NCBI GenBank assembly: GCA_030018435.1 | Contig: JASEEY010000001.1 | Location: forward strand, 11,038-75,037 | Origin: Methanocellales archaeon | GTDB taxonomy: Archaea; Halobacteriota; UBA148; JAUWXC01 | DNA: 64,000 bases | Direction: 5' to 3' | Shown: one piece after another, positions 1,287 through 41,971 of the stretch | How the letters are laid out: each line of letters begins with the position of its first letter | How positions within the stretch are numbered: position 1 is the stretch's first letter | The notes under the pieces: generated by a model | Databases searched by the model: none | What the model saw: the letters and a program-made list of their open reading frames with translations, nothing else | What the model was told of the DNA's origin: nothing | Position numbers and translations under genes: made by a program

Positions 1287-2104
1287 ATACTTCTGAGTTA
1301 AACGCAGAGTTGGCTCTTGAGGAATATATGACCGGAGAAAAGCCACTGGGTGTATTGGTCATAGAGGGTGCCATTGCGGATGGACCAGAGGGCTCGGGCA
1401 AGTACACCACAGTAGGAGGAAAGCCGTTCAAGGAAATGGTCCAGCGATGTGCTGCCAAAGCCTCATACGTTGTCGCTTTTGGCATGTGCGCGACATACGG
1501 CGGCATTCCGGCGGCGAGAGGCTCTGTAACGGACAATATGGGAGCACAATTCTTACAAACGACGAAAGGCGGAATTCTCGGTGCTGGCTATACATCTGGA
1601 GCAGGTCTGCCAGTAGTAAACATTCCTGGTTGCCCAGCACATCCAGACTGGATAATGTTAACGTTGGCAGCGATCATTCTTGGCAAGGGCGGGCTCATCG
1701 AATTGGATGAGTACAACAGACCAACTGCGTTCTTCCCACCAGATTACACCATACATGAGAACTGTCCAAGGCGTGGTTTCTATGATATAGGTCAATTGGA
1801 CACTGAATTTACTGAAGGGCACTGTCTATGGAAACTGGGATGCAAGGCACCATATACGCACGCAGACTGTGCGACGCGTTTGTGGAATAATCATCTGAAC
1901 ATGTGCACCCAAGCAGGGTCACCATGTATCGGTTGCGTGCAACCAGGATTCCCAGATAGTACAAGTCCGTTCTATGTGGAAATGGAGAAAGTACCGACGC
2001 TGGTAGGCGTGGACATAAATACCATAGCCAAAGCGGCTATAGGCGCAGCCGCAATTGGCGTGGGAGCGCATGCAGCGCGCAGAATAGGCATGAAGGAGGA
2101 ATGA
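1283..2104 (+). CDS. vhtG: [NiFe] hydrogenase small subunit, C-terminal part in the -1 frame relative to 984-1286 (apparent frameshift)
   Basis: GVLVIEGAI...VAFGMCATYGGIPAA...NIPGCPAHPDW...ENCPRRG...CLWKLGCKAPYTHADC...GSPCIGC are distal and medial FeS-cluster motifs of the small subunit. Frame 2 is open from 1241 and overlaps frame 0 by 45 nt. Confidence 0.8.
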   Translation: MNTSELNAELALEEYMTGEKPLGVLVIEGAIADGPEGSGKYTTVGGKPFKEMVQRCAAKASYVVAFGMCATYGGIPAARGSVTDNMGAQFLQTTKGGILGAGYTSGAGLPVVNIPGCPAHPDWIMLTLAAIILGKGGLIELDEYNRPTAFFPPDYTIHENCPRRGFYDIGQLDTEFTEGHCLWKLGCKAPYTHADCATRLWNNHLNMCTQAGSPCIGCVQPGFPDSTSPFYVEMEKVPTLVGVDINTIAKAAIGAAAIGVGAHAARRIGMKEE

Positions 2105-2108
2105 GCAA

Positions 2109-3917
2109 ATGGCAACAGTAGTAGTTGATCCACTGACAAGGATTGAGGGACACCTGAGACTCACAGCTGAAGTCAGCGATGGCGTAATTACGAATGCGCA
2201 CAGCTCTGGGACTATGTACAGGGGATTTGAACAGATTCTCAAGGGCAGGGATCCAAGGGATGCATCCAGGATAACACAAAGGATCTGCGGAGTATGTCCT
2301 ACCGGTCATGCAATGACATCGGTCAATGCATTGGATGATGCGTTCGGTCTAGCGGAATACATACCAAAGGATGCGCTGGTTGTGAGAAACATCGTGCAGT
2401 GTCTGAATACCATAGCCAGTCATGCGACGCATATATACGTGCTCTGGTTGCTGGACCTAGCGAACCCAGCATACAAGACGATCCTGGAGACGATAAACCT
2501 GAAGCCAGTCTGGGACGAACTCGTGGGCAGATTTGCACCGATCAGTCACTCCATAGAAGGTAAGGCAGTTCCACCAGGAAGTTCTTACTTGGCAGCCATC
2601 CCAGAGAAGAAGGCGCTACAAGAGGCGATAGCGGTGTTTGGAGGCAAGATGCCCATTCAGATGACCTCCATTGTAGGAGGAGTCACTTGCACTCCCACCG
2701 TCGCAGACATAGGCAGGATCGCATCCTACTACGTAAGGGTCATGGAGTTTGTCAACCATTACGTGCTAGGACTGGATGCGCTTGGCATAACAAGCGACCC
2801 GTTGGAAACCGCCGATAAATGGCTCGAACTCACACACGACGTCAGCAAGGACAAGGCAGTGGCAAACGTGTTGGACATATTGGGTGGTTTGCCAACCGAT
2901 GACTTCTCTCGAGCAGCGGGATGGAGCGATGTTGCATTGCTCGCAGCATTCGGCTCAGAACTCATAGGAGAAACGTTGCTGGGACTGCCAGCCAGCCTGA
3001 AGTTTGACACGATAGGTGGATATCCAGTGGACCCAACGAAGATCGGTTTCCTTTCATATGGCGTGTTCTATGCCATCAAAGAAGGATACGATCCAACCAG
3101 CCCGAAGGGTGAACGCTTCATCACATCCGGCTTCACAAGCGGCGATCTCAAGTATGAGGAGTTCAATCATCACAATGTGACAGAGCATGTGGCGCACTCA
3201 TTCTACACGAGCGGCAACGATTTGCATCCATGGGGCGGAGAAACCGAACCGGTTAAAACAACAGCGACGATCAAATACGATGATCCAGCCGCAAAATACA
3301 GCTGGCTCAAAGCACCGAGGTACAAGCAAATACCATGCGAAGTAGGACCACTAGCGAGAATGATCAATGCTAAAGAGCCTTTGGTCACGGGACTGGCAGA
3401 GACGTTCTTAGCCAACTGCTACTCGCCTGCAAACGTCTACACGAGGATGCTGGCAAGGGCACAAGAGACCATCATTCTTGCACGCGAATTAAAGAAATGG
3501 GTACTAGTCGACTTGGATTCAAATGGCAAATTCTACACGCATGCAGATCTATCGATGGCCAAGAACAGCCAGGGCGTAGGTCTCTGGGAAGCTCCAAGAG
3601 GCGCATTAGGACACTGGATCGTGACCGATGGAGCATCAAAGATAGCAAACTACCAGCCAGTTGTTCCTTCGACATGGAACCTTTGTCCCAGAGATACCAA
3701 CGGCAAACTGGGCCCGGTCGAGCTAGCGCTTGTGGGCAGTAAGGTCGGTCCGGTTGGCAACGTGCTTAGCACATTGGGCGCGATACCGCTATCCAAGGAA
3801 AACGAGAATCCAACAGGCATATTCCACGTAGGTAGATCGTTCGACCCATGCATCGCTTGTGCGGTGCACACGATCGACATGAACACCAACAAGAAATACG
3901 AGCTCAGAATACTCTAG
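2109..3917 (+). CDS. vhtA: [NiFe] hydrogenase large subunit with cleavable C-terminal extension
   Basis: 602 aa. N-terminal RICGVCPTGH and C-terminal DPCIACAVH Ni-Fe binding motifs. A 15-aa tail follows the His, which is the usual site for the maturation protease. Confidence 0.9.
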   Translation: MATVVVDPLTRIEGHLRLTAEVSDGVITNAHSSGTMYRGFEQILKGRDPRDASRITQRICGVCPTGHAMTSVNALDDAFGLAEYIPKDALVVRNIVQCLNTIASHATHIYVLWLLDLANPAYKTILETINLKPVWDELVGRFAPISHSIEGKAVPPGSSYLAAIPEKKALQEAIAVFGGKMPIQMTSIVGGVTCTPTVADIGRIASYYVRVMEFVNHYVLGLDALGITSDPLETADKWLELTHDVSKDKAVANVLDILGGLPTDDFSRAAGWSDVALLAAFGSELIGETLLGLPASLKFDTIGGYPVDPTKIGFLSYGVFYAIKEGYDPTSPKGERFITSGFTSGDLKYEEFNHHNVTEHVAHSFYTSGNDLHPWGGETEPVKTTATIKYDDPAAKYSWLKAPRYKQIPCEVGPLARMINAKEPLVTGLAETFLANCYSPANVYTRMLARAQETIILARELKKWVLVDLDSNGKFYTHADLSMAKNSQGVGLWEAPRGALGHWIVTDGASKIANYQPVVPSTWNLCPRDTNGKLGPVELALVGSKVGPVGNVLSTLGAIPLSKENENPTGIFHVGRSFDPCIACAVHTIDMNTNKKYELRIL

Positions 3918-6547: not shown

Positions 6548-6945
6548 TTTAGTATCCCCCTTATTCTCTCTCGAACTACATCCTTGGCAGCTTCTAGTGC
6601 TTTTTCATAGGGCTTGCCAGACCACACCACACTTTCCACCAGGTCCTTCGTTATCTCCGCCACATCCTCTTCTGAGATTAGATTTAGAGCATCGCATAGT
6701 AGGGTCAATCGTAAATCGAGGTCCACTTTTTTCTCTAGGCAGGCGCTCCAGTTCTGCTCTGCCCTGGAGTGAATGCCCATCAATCCTGCCATGTCGAGTT
6801 TTTCCATTATGCAATTTTCAAGCTTCTCCTTTGGAATTTTGTACAGCTTCGCGAGAGGCTCGATGACATCCTTTTGATATCTGTAACTTTTCAGCTTCCA
6901 TCTCTTCATCTCCGTAAGGTCGTAACTCTTCGCTATGGACTTCAT
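6544..6945 (-). CDS. small hydrophilic subunit of Ech-type hydrogenase (EchD-like position); function unknown
   Basis: ATG at 6943-6945 forms an ATGA stop-start overlap with the upstream 88-aa gene. The longer track ORF running to 7002 overlaps that gene. No recognisable motif. Confidence 0.45.
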   Translation of the reverse strand: MKSIAKSYDLTEMKRWKLKSYRYQKDVIEPLAKLYKIPKEKLENCIMEKLDMAGLMGIHSRAEQNWSACLEKKVDLDLRLTLLCDALNLISEEDVAEITKDLVESVVWSGKPYEKALEAAKDVVRERIRGILK

Positions 6946-7208
6946 GTCGCCACCCCCCATACGAAGTACGAGGCTAATACAAATCCACCCAGCACCAGCC
7001 ACATGAACAAGACCTCCAGTTTCTCAGAGAACTTTGCTCCGCTCTCTGAAAGGGGCGCCGTTAACAGGAGCAAAACTCCCGCTAGCACTATGCACGCGAT
7101 CATTGCCGGAGCGCGATATATGCTTCCATAGGATCTCACTACTTCTGCCACTGCTACCAGGAACGGTATCGCTGCAACCAAGATGCTCATGGAGACGAAC
7201 CTTCTCAT
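6942..7208 (-). CDS. 88-aa 3-TM membrane subunit, possibly NuoK/MnhC-like, in the ech-like operon
   Basis: Three hydrophobic helices. Translationally coupled to both neighbours with 4-nt overlaps. Confidence 0.45.
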   Translation of the reverse strand: MRRFVSMSILVAAIPFLVAVAEVVRSYGSIYRAPAMIACIVLAGVLLLLTAPLSESGAKFSEKLEVLFMWLVLGGFVLASYFVWGVAT

Positions 7209-8062
7209 AGGATCACTCCCTTTAGTAGATAGTACAACACCGCCACGCTGGCAATTGAGGCTTCGACCATTACTGAATGATACGGTGCCAGCATGGGGGT
7301 TAGTGCGCTAATGAAAGATAGTGAGGCAAGCAATAGGACGAATCCCAGCGCATAACCCCATAACGGAGCCGGACCAATGTATACCAACATGAACAGCGAC
7401 ATTAGCACGAATATCTCTATGCTTTCGCCGGTCAAAATGCCCGCTCTTAGAACTCCAAAGTGCTCCGTCTTGTATCCGGTGACTATGTCCTTCGCCATTA
7501 CTATGGCCAATGGGGAGTGGTGGATCTTGGATAGCATTATGGTATAGGTTGCAAGTGCGCACAGCGGAAGCTGGAACAGGAGCGGTCCATGGGTGCTCTG
7601 ATATGCTACTATGTCCGAGATCATCAACGAGTTCGTTTTAAGATAGACGATGGCCAAAACGGCAAATAATGGGAGCTCAGCAGTTGCAGAGTACACCGAT
7701 CTTACGCCGCCAAACTTTCCATAGGGGGAGCCGGATGATAGTCCAGCTCCATGCTCGACTAGCTTGTGTAGCATCAGCACCGCCAGTAATATCAGGAAGT
7801 TATATCCATTGGTGACAACGACCAATCCGAGTATCCAGGCTCCTATGAGAAGTGCGACCACTCCGAAATATACCGGCTTGCAGGCCGTTTCTGGAGCGGT
7901 CATCTCCTTTACGAAGAACTTCAATAGATGATAGAGTTCCTGCTGTATTGGCGGGCCAGGTCGACCCTGTATTCTTGCGATGATCTTCCTATGCAGTCCT
8001 AGGAACATTATGCCGACCAGGAATGCAACTGGTATCATGAGCAAGGTTCTAATCAAGAGCAT
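7205..8062 (-). CDS. echB: NuoH/HycD/EchB-like integral membrane subunit of Ech-type hydrogenase
   Basis: 285 aa, polytopic. The LHRKIIARIQGRPGP motif is typical of NuoH/HycD. It is the first gene of the operon. Confidence 0.75.
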   Translation of the reverse strand: MLLIRTLLMIPVAFLVGIMFLGLHRKIIARIQGRPGPPIQQELYHLLKFFVKEMTAPETACKPVYFGVVALLIGAWILGLVVVTNGYNFLILLAVLMLHKLVEHGAGLSSGSPYGKFGGVRSVYSATAELPLFAVLAIVYLKTNSLMISDIVAYQSTHGPLLFQLPLCALATYTIMLSKIHHSPLAIVMAKDIVTGYKTEHFGVLRAGILTGESIEIFVLMSLFMLVYIGPAPLWGYALGFVLLLASLSFISALTPMLAPYHSVMVEASIASVAVLYYLLKGVIL

Positions 8063-8086
8063 ATTCTTAACTCTTTAGTATCCTTA

Positions 8087-8128
8087 GTGTATCCATCTGA
8101 TACACGATATATGTATTGATTGATACAC
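8087..8128. promoter_or_regulatory. cluster of GTGTATC/GATACAC half-sites upstream of the ech-like operon, divergent from the RHH regulator gene
   Basis: gtgtatc-catct-gatacac palindrome at 8087-8105, plus another gatacac at 8122-8128 inside gtattgattgatacac. A TATA-like ttaagtatataa sits at about 8160. Confidence 0.35.
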
Positions 8129-8293
8129 TCGACTATACCAGAAACATAACGATAAATCGTTAAGTATATAAGGGGGGAATTCTTGTGTTGCTATAGACAC
8201 CTTTGATAAATCAGACAAATAACTTAGGAAATAGGGTAACTTTGGGAGGCGTTTTTGATACACCATGACACCACGACGGTTGCGAAAAAGACC

Positions 8294-8464
8294 ATGAGCG
8301 ACGTGAGGATAAAAATGCCTAAACCGATGTTAGAAGCCATTGACTTGGCAATTGAGATAGGACAGGCTGGCACCAGATCCGACTTTATTAGGATGGCGAT
8401 AGCCAACCAACTTAGAGAGACAACTATCACAGGAGAAATGAAGAAAAGAAAATTTGAGAAGTAA
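8294..8464 (+). CDS. ribbon-helix-helix (CopG/NikR-N-like) DNA-binding protein
   Basis: VRIKMPKPMLEAIDLAIEIGQAGTRSDFIRMAIANQL has the RHH beta-alpha-alpha pattern. It is divergent from the ech-like operon. The track start is 8255; the internal Met at 8294 is more likely. Confidence 0.5.
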   Translation: MSDVRIKMPKPMLEAIDLAIEIGQAGTRSDFIRMAIANQLRETTITGEMKKRKFEK

Positions 8465-8610
8465 GTGGAAAGATTTTACCTGATAATTTTTACTTGTCCA
8501 ACTACTGATATAGTGAAATAGGATTTTTCAGTACCAATTTTCAAGTCTCGTCTACATCCGCTCATCAAACATAAATATCATCAAAATAAACATCATTAGG
8601 AGGTATTTCA

Positions 8611-18442: not shown

Positions 18443-18453
18443 CTTTTCCTCAA

Positions 18454-18528
18454 TGCTCCGGTGGGGATTTGAACCCCAGTCTTGGGAGTGAGAGTCCCAA
18501 ATGATTGGCCGAGCTACACTACCGGAGC
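18454..18528 (-). tRNA. tRNA-Glu(CUC), no intron
   Basis: Reverse complement: GCUCCGGUAGUGUAGCUCGGCCAAUCAUUUGGGACUCUCACUCCCAAGACUGGGGUUCAAAUCCCCACCGGAGC. Anticodon stem UGGGA/UCCCA, loop CUCUCAC. Confidence 0.8.
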
Positions 18529-18609
18529 AATAACACCAAAGTAGTTAGGTAATAATTAGTCTTTCGTCTCAAAACTTTTATGTCATAAGCGATAAGGTTC
18601 TCCTAGGAA

Positions 18610-21476: not shown

Positions 21477-22840
21477 AGAAGCAACCAATGCCAGAGCAAG
21501 AGCCCGAGAAGCGCATCCGCAATTTTGATGAAGTGGCATTAGGTTACGGCGCAGGGCAGGTTGTTTCAGAGGCAAAAAGATGTCTGCAATGTGCGAAACC
21601 GGGATGTGTACAGGGATGCCCTGTTGGAATTGATATTCCTGCGTTTGTTAAGTGCATTGCCGAGGAGAATTTTGATGGTGCGATCGAAGTCATCAAAAAG
21701 AAAAACAATCTACCGGCAATCTGCGGTCGCGTGTGTCCATACGAGGATCAGTGTGAGAAGTTTTGCGTGCTGGGCAAAAAAGGAGAGCCGGTGGGAATTG
21801 GTCGACTTGAGAGATTCGTGGCAGATGATGAAAGGAAAAAAGGTATGAGAGTTCCAGAAAAAGCAAACGCATCAAGCAAAAAAGTGGCAATCGTTGGCTC
21901 TGGGCCTGCTGGGCTTACAGTAGCAGCAGATTTGGCTAAACTTGGACATGATGTTATCATATATGAGGCGTTGCACAAACCCGGCGGCGTGCTCGTGTAC
22001 GGCATCCCGGAGTTCAGGCTGCCAAAGGAAATAGTTGGGGCTGAGATCGAGTACGTAAAGCAATTGGGCGTTGTCATTCAGACAGATGTGGTCATCGGTA
22101 AAACGATCACGATAGATGAACTTAGAGGAGAATTCGATGCCATATTTATCGGAACGGGTGCAGGTCTGCCGCACTTCATGAATATACCAGGTGAGAACCT
22201 CTGTGGCATCTATTCCTCCAATGAATTCCTAATCAGAACGAATTTGATGCGAGCGTATAAGTTTCCGGAGTATGATACGCCGATCAAGGTTGGCAAGAAG
22301 GTAGCAGTTGTAGGCGCGGGCAACGTCGCCATGGATTCGGCGAGAGTTGCCTTACGATTGGGCGCAAAAGATGTGTTCATCGTGTACAGAAGGTCAGAAA
22401 AGGAGATGCCTGCAAGGGCGGAGGAGATTGCACATGCTAAAGAAGAGGGCATTATGTTTAAGGTCCTCACCAATCCGATAAGAATGGTTGGCGATGAGAA
22501 CGGCTGGGTGAAGAAGTTGGAATGCGTAAGAATGAAATTGGGGGAGTCGGACAAAACTGGGCGAAGGAGGCCGATTCCAATAAAAGGATCAAAGTTTGCA
22601 CTGGATGCTGATACCGTAGTCGTCGCAATAGGACAAAAACCAAATCCGCTGATTGCAAAAACGACGAAAGGATTGCGAATCACAGAACAGGGTACCATTT
22701 GGGCTGATAAGAATGGCAAAACATCCATGGAAGGCATATTCGCCGGAGGAGACATCACTACAGGAACCGCAACGGTAATCGAAGCCATGGGCGCAGGAAA
22801 AAGAGCTGCAATGGCGATTCATGAATATATCTCGCAATGA
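21455..22840 (+). CDS. nfnB: NfnB/SudA-like glutamate synthase small-chain homolog (NADPH oxidoreductase)
   Basis: Two Cys clusters (CLQCAKPGC...C), VAIVGSGPAGL and VAVVGAGNVAMD dinucleotide motifs. 461 aa. Confidence 0.85.
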   Translation: MGKVSSLKKQPMPEQEPEKRIRNFDEVALGYGAGQVVSEAKRCLQCAKPGCVQGCPVGIDIPAFVKCIAEENFDGAIEVIKKKNNLPAICGRVCPYEDQCEKFCVLGKKGEPVGIGRLERFVADDERKKGMRVPEKANASSKKVAIVGSGPAGLTVAADLAKLGHDVIIYEALHKPGGVLVYGIPEFRLPKEIVGAEIEYVKQLGVVIQTDVVIGKTITIDELRGEFDAIFIGTGAGLPHFMNIPGENLCGIYSSNEFLIRTNLMRAYKFPEYDTPIKVGKKVAVVGAGNVAMDSARVALRLGAKDVFIVYRRSEKEMPARAEEIAHAKEEGIMFKVLTNPIRMVGDENGWVKKLECVRMKLGESDKTGRRRPIPIKGSKFALDADTVVVAIGQKPNPLIAKTTKGLRITEQGTIWADKNGKTSMEGIFAGGDITTGTATVIEAMGAGKRAAMAIHEYISQ

Positions 22841-24581: not shown

Positions 24582-25544
24582 ATGACCAAAACCCAATTCA
24601 TCAAGGACCTAAAAAGTGGAGATATCGTAGATAGCACCTTTGCGGTCAAATACAAAAAGCCACCAAAGACGTATACATCCGGTTTCTCTTTTGAGTTCAG
24701 AGCCAGCGATAAAACAGGCGAGATGACGGCAAAGTACTGGGGTGATAGGAACGAGACTGGTGTAAAAGAGGTCTACGAAAGATTTCAGACGGGCGATGTC
24801 ATCCACATCACCGGCAGGGTTGGCGAGTTCAAGGATAAGTTGGAGATGGCGCTGGATACCACGAGCACCTTGAGAAGGTGTGCATCAACCGAATACGACA
24901 TCGAGGACTTCGTGGCAAAGACTGATAAAAACGTGGAATCCATGATGGGCGAACTCATGAGTATAATCAATTCCATCAAGAACCCGCACCTGAGCGCATT
25001 GCTGAACTCATTTTTCCATGACACAAATTTCGTCGAGAAATTCAAACGCTGCCCTGGTTCTATGCACAGGCATCAGAATTACATTGGTGGTTTGCTAGAA
25101 CACACGCTGAATGTGGTTAAACTATGCAACACGATGTATGCCGTACATCCCTCGCTGGATAGAGACCTGCTTCTGACCGGTGCGATACTCCATGATATAG
25201 GGAAGACAAGGGAGTATGCTGTAACGACGAGTATCGATGTTTCCGAAGAAGGAATGTTGATAGGTCACCTGGTCATAGGAGAACAAATGGTGCTGGATAG
25301 AATTAAGATGCTTGAGAACTTTCCCGAAGTTCTCAGGATGAAGGTAGCGCACATCATGCTGAGCCATCACGGATTAAACGAGTACGGGTCGCCGAAAAAT
25401 CCGCAGTTTCCAGAGGCGTTCGCGATCTATTATGCAGACGAATGCGATGCCAAGGTGGATCTCTGCATCAGGCTGAAAAAAGAGGCGGAGACGGAAGACC
25501 CCTGGGTTTATACAAAGGATTTCAAGCATATATATCTGCGATAA
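24582..25544 (+). CDS. OB-fold plus HD-domain nuclease (YhaM/CBF-like 3'-5' exonuclease family)
   Basis: N-terminal OB-like region. HD motifs: HTLNV...HDIGK...HHG...D. Confidence 0.7.
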   Translation: MTKTQFIKDLKSGDIVDSTFAVKYKKPPKTYTSGFSFEFRASDKTGEMTAKYWGDRNETGVKEVYERFQTGDVIHITGRVGEFKDKLEMALDTTSTLRRCASTEYDIEDFVAKTDKNVESMMGELMSIINSIKNPHLSALLNSFFHDTNFVEKFKRCPGSMHRHQNYIGGLLEHTLNVVKLCNTMYAVHPSLDRDLLLTGAILHDIGKTREYAVTTSIDVSEEGMLIGHLVIGEQMVLDRIKMLENFPEVLRMKVAHIMLSHHGLNEYGSPKNPQFPEAFAIYYADECDAKVDLCIRLKKEAETEDPWVYTKDFKHIYLR

Positions 25545-25614
25545 AGCTCTGCAGTACTTGTGTTGCCTCGCTACGCTCGGTCACTTAAACATATCGAAAA
25601 GGAGAGCAAGAGAT

Positions 25615-26196
25615 ATGGAGGAAACTAGTACAACTACAAAATTAAATGAAACGCTAAAATCATTGGAAGAAACAATGGACGAACTAAAGGAGTTGGGGTA
25701 TCCAATAGGAAGAGTTAGATCAATTTATGGGGAGCTATATACCGCAAAGAAACTTATTGATTTACAGCCGCAAGTAGGTAGGGATAGAGAATATACAAGG
25801 GCAGATATCTATTTAAGCAAGATATGTAAGTTGGTAGAAGTTAAGTCATGTGAAAAAAATAAGATGACCGAGAATGCTACTTGGGTGTGGACTTTTGGAG
25901 AAAAACAAATAACAAAATTTGATTACGCCGTTCTCATAGGTTTCGGGGAAAATTCTTTTGATATTGAAAAAGTGTTCGTTCTAAGCCATAATGAACTGGA
26001 GGGTTGGCCCGTAAGAAAAGATAATGTAAGGAAAAAAGGGACAGTGTATATCTCTTATTATGATAATTTCGAGGATTATGAAAAAGATGTAGAAGAAGAT
26101 GTAAAAAAAGGTGTAAAAAACGCAGAGATAGAAATTGAAAAAGAATTAAATAAATATTCCGAAAAATTTGAAAATAGATGGGACAAAATTAGATAA
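25615..26196 (+). CDS. PD-(D/E)xK nuclease-fold protein, Hjc-like core with acidic C-terminal tail; AT-rich gene
   Basis: ADIYL...LVEVKS matches the D...ExK catalytic pattern of Hjc and restriction-endonuclease folds. AGGAGA RBS before ATG 25615. Local GC is well below the window average. Confidence 0.5.
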   Translation: MEETSTTTKLNETLKSLEETMDELKELGYPIGRVRSIYGELYTAKKLIDLQPQVGRDREYTRADIYLSKICKLVEVKSCEKNKMTENATWVWTFGEKQITKFDYAVLIGFGENSFDIEKVFVLSHNELEGWPVRKDNVRKKGTVYISYYDNFEDYEKDVEEDVKKGVKNAEIEIEKELNKYSEKFENRWDKIR

Positions 26197-26318
26197 CAAA
26201 AAGACTCGCTTCGTTCGCCCAAATCCTGCTTTGTAGGACTTCATATATGCTCGAGACTTTATGCGAAATCGTAGAGACAGATATACCTTTATAAAGCTGG
26301 AATCGAAATAAGAACAAG

Positions 26319-26534
26319 ATGAGACAAATAAAAATAATAGTTGAAAAACATCCAGAGGGATACGTAGCATATCCCCTTGGATTAAAAGGCGTGGTGGTCG
26401 GAGAAGGTGATACCTACGAGGAGGCGCTCGCAGATGTAAAGTCAGCTATCAAATTCCATATGGAAACTTTTGGAAAAGAGGCTCTTGAAACGAAAGAGAT
26501 CATAGAAACCTTTGTTGCAGAAGTGGCAGTGTAA
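26319..26534 (+). CDS. hicB: HicB-family antitoxin
   Basis: 71 aa with HicB/UPF0150-like layout (MRQIKIIVEKHPEGYVAYPLGLKGVVVGEGDTYEEALADVKSAI). Confidence 0.7.
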   Translation: MRQIKIIVEKHPEGYVAYPLGLKGVVVGEGDTYEEALADVKSAIKFHMETFGKEALETKEIIETFVAEVAV

Positions 26535-26535
26535 T

Positions 26536-26772
26536 ATGAAATTTCCAAAAGATGCACCAAAACGCAAGGTCATAAAAACTTTTGAAAAACTGGGATTTAA
26601 AATCGTAAGAGTGGGAAATCACATTTCGATGGTTAGAGAAAATCCAGATGGTAGCAAAACACCCTTAACCATGCCAAACCATGAGAGAATAAAAGGCTCT
26701 ACCTTAAGAACGATTTGTAGGCAATCTGGAATACCAAGAGAGAAGTTTTTAAAAATCTATGGGAGCGTATAA
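26536..26772 (+). CDS. hicA: HicA-family mRNA interferase toxin
   Basis: MKFPKDAPKRKVIKTFEKLGFKIVRVGNHISMVRENPDGSKTPLTMPNHERIKGSTLRTICRQSGIP has the YcfA/HicA signature. It follows hicB after 1 nt. Confidence 0.75.
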   Translation: MKFPKDAPKRKVIKTFEKLGFKIVRVGNHISMVRENPDGSKTPLTMPNHERIKGSTLRTICRQSGIPREKFLKIYGSV

Positions 26773-26803
26773 AGTTACAACTTTGTTTATCGTAAAATTC
26801 AAA

Positions 26804-27889
26804 TCACTTCTCCATCACAAGCGTAACAACATCCTCATCCAGCAAAACATGCTCAAGACCTACCCTTTGCCCTTCGTATTTTACGGATTTCCCCCATACC
26901 AGGGCGTACCTGAACTTTTGCCTTGCATCCCTGTGGATGCGAGCGCATACCTCGCTGACGGTTGCGCCTTCTTTGAGAATCAGCGGCTCTTCTTTGTCGG
27001 GTGGGCTACCAGGCCGTTTCATGTATATGCGGATGAACTCCAACCTGTCAAAAATAGCATTCCTGAGTTCATCAAGACCCCAGCCGTTCTCTGCGGAAAT
27101 CAGGATGGCGCCCTCCGGAATTGCCAGACCCTTTAGAGCCTTATTATCCACTAAATCCAACTTGTTCACCACTATCAATGCAGGCACATACTTTCTATTT
27201 GCCATAATCGCATCGATGAGTTGGTCCAGCGTTATGCTCTCACGAATAAGCACATCAGCATTATGGATTTTATGCTCATTTAATATGGAACGCATCGTCG
27301 CCTCATCGATATCGCATTCCACCGTTTTGCTGATGGCGAGGCCTCTCGTATTTTTTCGATGAATGGCGATGGCAGGAGGTGTTTCGTTGATGCGTACTCC
27401 TGCATCATGCAGTTCCTTTTTAATCACATTTAGATGGTCTGGATGGAAAACATCGGTGATCAGCAATAAGAGGTCTGCGTTTCGAATAACTGACAGTACC
27501 TCCCTCCCTCGCCCTTTGCCGGCGGCAGCGCCTTCGATCAGGCCGGGGATGTCAAGCAGCTGTATATGCGCCCCCGTATGGACAAATGCCCCAGGGATGA
27601 CTTTCAGTGTGGTAAAATCGTAGTCAGCAACTGGAGACTGCGCATTGGTGAGTTTGTTGAGCAGTGTCGATTTCCCAACAGAGGGAAAACCTACTAAGAT
27701 AACGGTAGCATCGCCGGATTTTTTGACTGAATAACCAGTTCCTTCGTGTTTCCCGGAAGATTTTTGAAGCTCATCCCTCAACCTGGCCAGCTTCGCCTTT
27801 AATCGACCAATATGAAGTTGTGTCGCCTTATTATAGGGAGTTTTCCGAATCTCATCCTCGATTGCTTTGATATCATCTTCGATGCCCAT
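26804..27889 (-). CDS. Obg/DRG-family GTPase with C-terminal TGS domain
   Basis: GFPSVGKSTLLN, DIPGLIEGA, NKLD and a TGS-like C-terminus. 361 aa. Confidence 0.85.
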   Translation of the reverse strand: MGIEDDIKAIEDEIRKTPYNKATQLHIGRLKAKLARLRDELQKSSGKHEGTGYSVKKSGDATVILVGFPSVGKSTLLNKLTNAQSPVADYDFTTLKVIPGAFVHTGAHIQLLDIPGLIEGAAAGKGRGREVLSVIRNADLLLLITDVFHPDHLNVIKKELHDAGVRINETPPAIAIHRKNTRGLAISKTVECDIDEATMRSILNEHKIHNADVLIRESITLDQLIDAIMANRKYVPALIVVNKLDLVDNKALKGLAIPEGAILISAENGWGLDELRNAIFDRLEFIRIYMKRPGSPPDKEEPLILKEGATVSEVCARIHRDARQKFRYALVWGKSVKYEGQRVGLEHVLLDEDVVTLVMEK

Positions 27890-41841: not shown

Positions 41842-41971
41842 AGCCTCGGGAGGGATTTGAACCCTCGACCTAGTGATATCTTGCAACCGTCCTACCGAAG
41901 GTGGACAAACGATCAACCCTTTTGAGAGTTGCTACAAGTCACTCGCTCTAGCCAGACTGAGCCACCGAGGC
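41842..41971 (-). tRNA. tRNA-Thr(UGU) with 55-nt intron (41878-41932) at 37/38
   Basis: Reverse complement, 5' exon: GCCUCGGUGGCUCAGUCUGGCUAGAGCGAGUGACUUGUA. 3' exon: AUCACUAGGUCGAGGGUUCAAAUCCCUCCCGAGGC-U. Anticodon stem AGUGA/UCACU. Confidence 0.75.

Follow-up and report, generated by a model that had tools for sequence, protein, structure and literature searches.

Enzymes of the BisI type read methylation within their cleavage site, and cleavage needs several 5mC or 5hmC bases within GCNGC. PvuII is, to our knowledge, always paired with its methyltransferase M.PvuII and a controller protein, and the Holliday-junction resolvase Hjc is encoded by a compact core gene, for a protein of about 120–140 aa. 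In the BisI-family enzyme Eco15I the active-site motifs are E, 'AD', 'QIK', and FDY, and helix alpha0 mediates dimerisation; NhoI has QVK where Eco15I has QIK, and the BisI enzymes as a family have QxK (PMC11347163). The gene of I-Ssp6803I sits within a group I intron of a tRNA gene in a cyanobacterium, and the enzyme works as a tetramer, with a target site of 23 bp (PMC3384342).

The islet described here lies in a 64-kb stretch of a Methanocellales MAG (the window; an earlier note, made from the sequence alone, had wrongly named Archaeoglobales) and contains a nuclease gene followed by hicB and hicA. Positions 25558–26772 are the lowest-GC 1.2-kb stretch of the window (GC 0.361 vs a mean of 0.475, sd 0.025 in 1.2-kb windows; z = −4.6), and a k-mer scan, as proposed in that note, puts the top 4-mer atypicality of the window at the islet as well (25545–26803; tetranucleotide distance z 6.7). 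GC equals 0.328 in the nuclease gene, 0.412 in hicB, and 0.359 in hicA, with 0.476 in the remainder of the window outside the nuclease gene; GC3 equals 0.28, 0.35, and 0.32, respectively, vs 0.46–0.59 in the adjoining genes. The sharp drop in base composition reported earlier is thus reproduced, as are the long A-runs and GAAAAA repeats: the nuclease gene has seven GAAAAA (window mean 0.54 per 582 nt; P = 0.0005 in mononucleotide shuffles of the same gene) and nine runs of five or more A (window mean 1.3 per 582 nt).

Two flanking core genes mark the insertion site and lie outside the islet, namely a gene for an OB-fold and HD-domain protein on the left (24582–25544, forward strand; Pfam HD E 1.3e-15) and a gene for a DRG-type GTPase (MMR_HSR1 and TGS in Pfam) on the right (26804–27889, reverse strand). 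Orthologues of the HD/OB gene in Methanocellales MAGs are 75–88% identical. In two sister Methanocellales (L012 and L013) the HD and DRG genes are convergent and abut, their stop codons being only 2 nt apart; hence, the islet is an insertion. A third locus, L014, has at this slot only a truncated, decayed hicB remnant and no nuclease; in the spacer alignment the window matches L014 from about 26259 on. The nuclease cassette (25545–26258, forward strand) is missing at the slot in L012, L013, and L014, as seen from the spacer alignment and the empty-site sequences, and among these four genomes only the present one has the nuclease gene there, which is accordingly not universally syntenic. Low GC and atypical 4-mers bear out the foreign origin proposed in the earlier note. 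Its further proposal, a remnant of an integrated element, found no support, as no integrase, transposase, tRNA, or intron was found within or adjoining the islet; a scan of positions 25300–27000 against Rfam gave no family at E <= 1, and an intron or ncRNA host for the nuclease was rejected on this result. As judged from these alignments, the HD/DRG gap is a small variable slot between convergent core genes, and two independent horizontal acquisitions, the nuclease and hicB–hicA, filled it. The islet is real but fairly ordinary mobile/defence DNA and does not overturn current understanding; the locus is a clean case of a 2-nt convergent core-gene gap used repeatedly as a landing slot for small foreign modules.

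The nuclease gene (25615–26196, forward strand) encodes a solitary, predicted PD-(D/E)xK endonuclease of 193 aa from an unnamed family, with predicted catalytic residues E40, D64, E75, and K77. The longest ORF reading starts at TTG 25558; ATG 25615 agrees with the deposited protein (P0001), and a putative ribosome-binding motif, AGGAG, lies 10 nt 5' of it (25600–25604, forward strand). The repeat search yielded a 12-nt tandem duplication (AGATGTAGAAGA / AGATGTAAAAAA; 26085–26118, forward strand) in the part encoding the C-terminal charged helix region, at a 5-residue indel in the pairwise alignment with protein P0002. A 73%-identical homologue has the same GC as 25615–26196 and comes from a contig with a GC of 37%; the two match at the nucleotide level (82.6%) within the ORF only, which likewise points to a foreign origin.

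The family set comprises 58 cluster representatives, nearly all of about 180–215 aa, and 53 sequences were aligned. E40, D64, E75, and K77 are invariant across these 53 members (27% mean column identity); R58, Q98, D103, and E175 are nearly invariant. The D...ExK core noted earlier (ADIYL...VEVKS) is confirmed in this way, since it holds D64, E75, and K77, and the pattern of the PD-(D/E)xK superfamily, with Glu in alpha1, Asp starting beta2, and (D/E)xK in beta3, is present. Only one close homologue was found among 5.8 billion clusters, and a second search with the family profile added two proteins (P0060 and P0061). Pfam (nothing at E <= 1), NCBIfam, PADLOC, and PHROGs gave no family match for the nuclease, and the Pfam scan of the 53 members gave scattered single weak matches only; nothing significant was found among PDB sequences by phmmer and the profile, and no nuclease relatives came up when viral sequences were scanned with P0001 or a sub-alignment, or in phage and plasmid sequences by tblastn. 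Hosts of the family are archaeal-looking and low-GC. This is a rare, solitary, unnamed family, mostly on archaeal-looking contigs, i.e., a new family of a known kind.

The structure was predicted from the 53-sequence alignment; with two aligned sequences, pLDDT reached only 45.9. The monomer model has helices at residues 2–26, the alpha0 position, and 32–46. Residues 150–193, described earlier as a long acidic tail, are of mixed charge, with 15 acidic and 10 basic residues (net −5); they are not a disordered tail, since two helices are confidently predicted here, with the conserved E175 and a C-terminal RWDKI motif. According to the model, the nuclease is a stand-alone single-domain PD-(D/E)xK fold with the layout of PvuII, the BisI family, and I-Ssp6803I: N-terminal alpha0, alpha1 with Glu40, a beta-sheet with Asp64 and Glu75-x-Lys77, and two C-terminal helices. 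The viral fold search in BFVD returned generic PD-(D/E)xK phage proteins only. Comparison with the BisI family gave a non-significant E 0.66 in the database search, and E 8.7e-5 and probability 60% in pairwise hhalign, with the catalytic columns aligned; in the profile and hhalign alignments with Eco15I, E40, D64, E75xK77, and D103 fall on E, 'AD', 'QIK', and FDY, respectively. The two families differ in that the nuclease family has an invariant E (EVK, ExK) in place of the first residue of QxK, and in that BisI-family hosts are bacterial; the methyl-binding pockets and GCNGC specificity of BisI enzymes cannot be read off the nuclease sequence.

Genomic neighbourhoods of the family often contain defence or mobile genes, e.g., an R-M island (L001), a Type IIG R-M enzyme (L051), a 2TM SLATT effector (L002; E 8e-49), an LmuB/PtuA-like ATPase (L036), a terminase with a RES toxin and a PD-T4-6-like protein (L047), an IS3 transposase (L043), and integrases (L006 and L062). 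No neighbour family occurs in more than two of the 33 independent locus groups, and an MBL-fold neighbour, DUF2779, an integrase, and a DRG GTPase reach two each. Small ORFs are found upstream of the nuclease in seven loci, but they are mutually unrelated and mostly domain-free; with no neighbour beyond two locus groups, the hypotheses of a conserved partner were rejected. No methyltransferase recurs beside the gene in the 33 locus groups, and phmmer searches using four methylase families, as well as a motif scan, detected none in the 64-kb window.

The absence of a linked methyltransferase or partner, the defence and mobile surroundings, and the modification dependence of the nearest relatives detectable by sequence, the BisI-type enzymes, make a solitary restriction-type defence nuclease the most likely assignment. 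The explanation that we favour for the whole islet, with about even confidence, is a slot filled twice, by a methyltransferase-independent restriction-type endonuclease, possibly modification-dependent, and by a separate hicBA pair. The nuclease would form an alpha0-mediated homodimer, with Mg2+ probably bound by E40, D64, and E75 and with K77 as the putative catalytic lysine, and would cleave duplex DNA specifically at a short site, probably in defence. Since the host would be spared without a cognate methylase, the enzyme would be modification-dependent, similar to Type IV or Type IIM enzymes. The family adds an unnamed, structurally well-predicted member to the restriction-endonuclease-like nucleases. 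If it is modification-dependent with a canonical ExK, it may supply enzymes of new specificity with which to map DNA modifications. It would then also exemplify restriction without a methylase among archaea related to methanogens, a group whose defences have been little explored.

The main rival, which we consider improbable, is a free-standing homing (selfish) endonuclease that cuts one long target near its insertion point in genomes without it and is copied there by repair. Homing would account for two unrelated contexts having essentially only the ORF in common. Shared synteny via the DUF1699 gene of L001 and a 143-aa ORF of the window was rejected, as there is no likeness beyond the nuclease ORF and the 143-aa ORF protein has no DUF1699 match in Pfam. 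I-Ssp6803I (PDB 2ost) has a similar fold and 14% residue identity with the nuclease; however, it is intron-borne, whereas the nuclease gene has no intron and occupies the intergenic space that separates the HD stop from the hicB promoter. A pattern search found a 13-nt imperfect direct repeat, with an upstream copy (CTCGCTACGCTCG; 25567–25579, forward strand) and a downstream copy (CTCGCTTCGTTCG; 26205–26217) overlapping a 16-nt motif (TTCGCCCAAATCCTGC; 26214–26229; together 26205–26229, forward strand). The 13-nt pattern has three matches in the window vs 0.16 expected, a number attained in none of 100 shuffles. The 16-nt motif recurs downstream of the L001 homologue, and the exact 13-mer TTCGCCCAAATCC is common only to the window and L001 (8440–8452). 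It is likewise improbable that the nuclease is the founder of another, archaeal line of PD-(D/E)xK homing enzymes, the second of its kind, outside introns and inteins; as a bare ORF it would enter gaps between genes of cellular chromosomes, and its insertion junctions would be marked by the 13-nt direct repeats and by the downstream motif that L001 shares. An integron, att, or terminal-repeat role of the 13-nt repeats could not be established, the motif being absent from other family loci save a degenerate form in L001.

With a similarly low probability, the nuclease may be an orphaned or decaying Type II endonuclease, its methyltransferase being elsewhere or lost and the enzyme being tolerated as weakly expressed, inactive, or siteless. 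The PvuII-like fold with its canonical D...ExK and the relaxed dN/dS in the nuclease gene are consistent with this, as are the methyltransferases found at three loci, in a Type IIG R-M enzyme 190 nt 5' of the nuclease gene in L051 and at distances of 2.4–6.6 kb in L001 and L009. However, the nearby methylases of L001 either are already paired with an endonuclease of the MvaI/BcnI type or, as Type ISP/IIG enzymes, are complete in themselves, and neither a methylase nor a controller, both linked to PvuII, is linked to the nuclease here; again, no methyltransferase recurs among the 33 locus groups. The invariance of the four catalytic residues in 53 divergent sequences argues for maintained nuclease activity.

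An Hjc-like Holliday-junction resolvase, if the structural analogy of the earlier note is taken at its word, or another structure-specific repair nuclease is very unlikely. Hjc ranks only 24th in Foldseek (E 0.04), and no Hjc Pfam match was seen at E <= 1 for the nuclease or among the 53 members; the nuclease is longer (193 aa), with alpha0 and two C-terminal helices that are missing in Hjc. Its gene is sporadic and horizontally acquired, being absent from the slot in sister genomes and having the single close homologue mentioned above, and its foreign composition is unlike that of a core recombination gene.

The second module (26319–26772) is a conventional toxin–antitoxin cassette with a probable promoter of its own and a separate arrival. 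The hicB-type antitoxin gene (26319–26534, forward strand; 71 aa) was identified by tblastn and encodes a short form without a DNA-binding domain, the Pfam match to HicB_lk_antitox being sub-threshold (E 0.03). After a 1-nt gap between stop and start it is followed by the hicA toxin gene (26536–26772, forward strand; 78 aa), with a full-length match to Pfam HicA_toxin (E 3.1e-13; PF07927 covered at 2–58 of 58); in the comparison with a HicA of known structure (PDB 9svk; E 0.009), GNH is aligned with GSH, the position of the GxH histidine. HicB is 72% identical (tblastn) to an ORF on a plasmid of the cyanobacterium Crinalium, where an annotated HicA comes next, and 44% identical (tblastn) to plasmid genes of Campylobacter whose annotation reads HicB family antitoxin, so that the pair reported in the earlier note stands, HicA by Pfam and HicB by its plasmid homologues. 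A cassette with a HicB this close to a cyanobacterial plasmid copy is among the modules received by the landing slot. It resembles known HicAB modules in the hicB–hicA order, the 1-nt spacer, the full-length HicA, and the short HicB, and differs from them in the missing DNA-binding domain, the below-threshold Pfam match, and the high cross-domain similarity.

The hicB upstream region (26259–26318, forward strand), kept in the L014 alignment (7008–7066), contains an archaeal TATA-like box, TTTATAAA (26288–26295), about 27 nt before ATG 26319, which probably acts as the hicB promoter. The hicB region is 90% identical to the L014 copy, compared with 82–85% for the flanking core genes; L013, the sister of L014, has no hicB. 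From sequence comparison, hicB–hicA arrived separately and is functionally independent of the nuclease, because L014 has hicB without the nuclease and plasmid hicBA pairs also occur without it. That the three genes form one unit, with the nuclease as an effector under HicAB control, is hardly credible: they lie side by side on one strand and are all low in GC, but the trio seen in the earlier note is broken up in L014, on plasmids, and at all other locus groups of the family (about 32–33), which have neither hicA nor hicB nearby, and hicB, with a conserved, probable TATA-like promoter of its own, lies 123 nt past the nuclease stop. One of the homologous plasmid hicBA pairs sits inside a Type I R-M operon.

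The nuclease gene of the AT-rich islet at 25558–26772 is intact and was acquired horizontally; it encodes a PD-(D/E)xK protein with a complete and invariant catalytic set, and it has no conserved partner. The islet carries three ORFs, all on the same strand: the nuclease (25615–26196, +, 193 aa), hicB (26319–26534, +, 71 aa), and hicA (26536–26772, +, 78 aa). The longest form of the nuclease ORF opens at TTG 25558; the deposited protein begins at ATG 25615, preceded by AGGAG at 25600–25604 (+). The database entry with 100% identity to the 193-aa product is a "hypothetical protein" from a Methanocellales archaeon MAG; the taxon is hence Methanocellales and not Archaeoglobales, the group assumed in the earlier note.

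The sharp compositional drop reported in the earlier note is confirmed: GC is 0.361 against a window mean of 0.475 (z = −4.6), the minimum among all 1.2-kb stretches, and the tetranucleotide distance to the window average peaks at the islet (z 6.7). GC3 equals 0.28, 0.35, and 0.32 in the nuclease, hicB, and hicA genes, respectively, versus 0.46–0.59 in neighbouring genes. The A-runs are likewise real, with seven GAAAAA and nine runs of at least five A in the nuclease gene (window means 0.54 and 1.3); the GAAAAA excess is significant relative to the shuffled gene (P = 0.0005), and the A-run richness reflects AT-rich codon use for a Glu/Lys-rich protein. A 12-nt tandem duplication lies inside the gene at 26085–26118.

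The nuclease has no match in Pfam, NCBIfam, PADLOC, or PHROGs. Searched exhaustively with HMMER, 1.84 billion cluster representatives yield 58 relatives (E ≤ 1e-3), nearly all of 180–215 aa and matching end to end; those with any name are "hypothetical protein". In a 53-member alignment (mean column identity 27%), E40, D64, E75, and K77 are invariant, and L47, R58, V76, Q98, D103, and E175 nearly so. The closest relative, P0002, shows 73% identity and resides on a metagenomic contig of 37% GC (locus L001); nucleotide homology between the two loci (82.6%) covers only 25638–26203, essentially the ORF, and in GC content the gene equals this homologue (0.328 and 0.326) and not its present host. 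The dN/dS ratio for this pair is 0.62, and about 0.4–0.5 across alignment codons 31–184; purifying selection is thus present, though weak. The nuclease ORF is flanked by the two copies of an imperfect 13-nt direct repeat (25567–25579 and 26205–26217), and a 16-nt motif, TTCGCCCAAATCCWGC (26214–26229), is common to the 3′ side of the two closest homologues; the corresponding stretches of L001 are 8440–8455 and 8536–8548.

The fold was assessed on an AlphaFold model built from the 53-row alignment (pLDDT 93.7, pTM 0.90), used instead of a two-sequence model, which was useless (pLDDT 46). The predicted elements are helix α0 (residues 2–26); helix α1 (32–46), bearing E40; strands 52–54, 65–67 (D64 at the start), 72–80 (E75, K77), 90–95, 104–110, 117–124, and 143–148; and C-terminal helices 152–164 and 173–180. 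What had been described as a long acidic tail (150–193; 15 acidic and 10 basic residues, net charge −5) is thus a confidently predicted helical element with the conserved E175 and a terminal RWDKI motif. Fold matches identify the protein as a PD-(D/E)xK nuclease. Structure comparison gives the highest scores to the homing endonuclease I-Ssp6803I (11.9), NhoI (10.8), and the N-terminal domain of Eco15I (9.8), followed, further down, by Fusellovirus D212 (7.6), PvuII (7.2), MspI (6.7), and DpnI (6.4); Foldseek ranks NhoI (E 1e-5), PvuII (3e-4), and Eco15I (6e-4) at the top. The match to Eco15I is non-significant in a database search (E 0.66), with a pairwise hhalign E of 8.7e-5 at a probability of 60%; all catalytic positions of the family profile are in register with it (YAE/YAE, aD/AD, EVK/QIK, FDY/FDY). 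The active-site motifs of Eco15I are "AD" and "QIK"; in the BisI family, α0 is the dimerisation helix, and the nearest canonical Type II relative of this family is PvuII (PMC11347163). The islet nuclease falls outside the BisI family, because it has ExK rather than QxK. It would act as an α0-mediated homodimer and cleave duplex DNA, with Mg2+ presumably held by E40, D64, and E75, and K77 as the putative catalytic lysine.

Genomic context was analyzed for 46 loci with a family member, forming 33 non-redundant groups, with neighbours within 4 kb clustered all-against-all. No neighbour family recurs in more than two groups, and therefore no methyltransferase, antitoxin, regulator, or host intron/intein gene is linked to the family; small ORFs abutting the gene upstream in several loci are mutually unrelated, and in the window no intron or other Rfam family is found around the nuclease gene. 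Family genes are frequently located in defence or mobile neighbourhoods. L001 encodes an MvaI/BcnI endonuclease with an N4/N6 methylase, a Type ISP enzyme, and, 48 nt directly upstream of the P0002 gene, a 331-aa protein (6739–7734, +) with a C-terminal HSDR_N_2 nuclease domain, an N-terminal domain of about 190 aa without annotation, and no PADLOC match; this protein may be a Type IV-like reader-nuclease. In L051, a Type IIG restriction-methylase lies 190 nt upstream of the family gene. In L002, a 2TM SLATT-type effector (994–1503, +; PADLOC E 7.7e-49), overlapping the end of a partial 333-aa gene, is about 330 nt upstream of the family nuclease (49% identity), so that a defence system adjoins the family gene. 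Other neighbours are an LmuB/PtuA-like ATPase (L036), an IS3 transposase (L043), integrases (L006 and L062), and, at about 5.4–6.6 kb, Vsr with a C5 methylase (L009). In L047 (26–9992), a provirus-like block encodes a ParB-type DNA methyltransferase and the large terminase subunit (E 7e-106); the accessory region after it carries the family nuclease along with PD-T4-6/PDC-M43B-like proteins, a HEPN/RES toxin, and a Cas4-like DUF2779 protein. A few loci (L035, L010) have a housekeeping appearance. Wherever markers of the host can be seen, they are of archaeal type (RNase P Rpp14/p30, ribosomal L30 and S27e, one Nitrososphaerales MAG), and sequence searches of viral contigs, phage records, and plasmids recover no member. 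The family, unnamed and uncharacterised, thus shares fold, chemistry, and genomic behaviour with known solitary restriction-like nucleases of the mobilome.

Neither phmmer, run with four types of methylase, nor motif scanning detects a DNA methyltransferase in the window; a restriction-type nuclease without one must spare host DNA in another way. Since, moreover, its only sequence-detectable relatives are modification-dependent, we rank first a solitary, probably modification-dependent defence endonuclease. This statement as a whole has roughly even chances; its insertion and nuclease parts are held with much higher confidence, and modification dependence, taken separately, is tentative, somewhat short of even. 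Type II enzymes are among the structural matches; given the missing methylase, an orphaned Type II enzyme seems unlikely by comparison with a solitary defence endonuclease.

A resolvase, suggested by the original description as Hjc-like, is far less probable than a solitary defence endonuclease. The PD-(D/E)xK fold part of that description holds, and I-Ssp6803I, PvuII, and Hjc are structural neighbours of one another (PMC3384342); three Hjc structures score 8.0–8.4, Hjc first appears at Foldseek rank 24, and the resemblance is closer to the PvuII/BisI/I-Ssp6803I group than to the Hjc family, to which the protein does not belong.

The islet separates two core genes, the HD gene (OB-fold and HD domain, 24582–25544), with orthologues in several Methanocellales genomes (75–88% protein identity), and a DRG-type GTPase gene (26804–27889, −). 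In the related genomes L012 and L013 these genes are convergent, with 2 nt between stop codons, so that the site is cleanly empty. The complete MAG chromosome L014 (CP061209.1) has in this gap a spacer of about 100 nt and hicB, and no nuclease gene; its hicBA has decayed, a deletion having taken hicA completely and hicB in its last ten codons. The orphan HicB-like ORF of 69 aa that is left (7066–7275) terminates just within the convergent DRG gene, at the 3′ end of the latter. Alignment between the window and L014 starts at about 26259, in the region upstream of hicB, which includes a TTTATAAA box at 26288–26295 (+); for 25545–26258, where the nuclease gene lies, L014 has no counterpart. L014 and L013 form a sister pair (nucleotide identity 93% for HD, 90% for DRG), and the window is nearly equidistant from all three (82–86%); since the hicB genes of the window and of L014 nevertheless share 90% identity, hicBA postdates the divergence of these genomes. 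The module reached, or was exchanged at, this slot laterally, and the nuclease cassette is an additional acquisition, private to this genome. Hence, the "trio" of the earlier note is co-location rather than a unit, and a HicAB-coupled system, contradicted by hicB without the nuclease in L014, is the least credible reading. The empty-site series is instructive, not surprising, and so is the repeated landing of modules in a gap of 2 nt between convergent genes.

HicA matches Pfam over its full length (E 3.1e-13) and retains the catalytic-region histidine when aligned to a solved HicA structure; HicB, with E 0.03, falls short of the Pfam threshold and finds no sequence match in PDB. In tblastn against plasmids, HicB is 44% identical to Campylobacter genes labelled HicB-family antitoxin, with HicA next, and 72% identical to that on Crinalium epipsammum plasmid NC_019737.1, where hicB and the annotated hicA (21822–22279) lie inside a Type I R-M operon between hsdM (N-6 methylase) and hsdS. 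The pair is therefore an ordinary, conventional, mobile HicAB cassette. The 72% identity is a striking cross-domain likeness for a toxin–antitoxin cassette.

Elsewhere in the window, the next most atypical tetranucleotide region is 1401–3000 (z 2.4–2.9), much weaker than the islet. About 550 nt at 8063–8610, bordered by a membrane-protein gene on one side and by small ORFs on the other, have no ORF of at least 70 aa, no Rfam match, and the second-lowest GC in the window (0.37–0.38 in 600-nt windows). ARAGORN finds only tRNA-Glu (18453–18529); Rfam adds a second tRNA at 41842–41971 (−; 55 bits), whose 130-nt span on the full model (1–71) implies an intron-containing tRNA gene.
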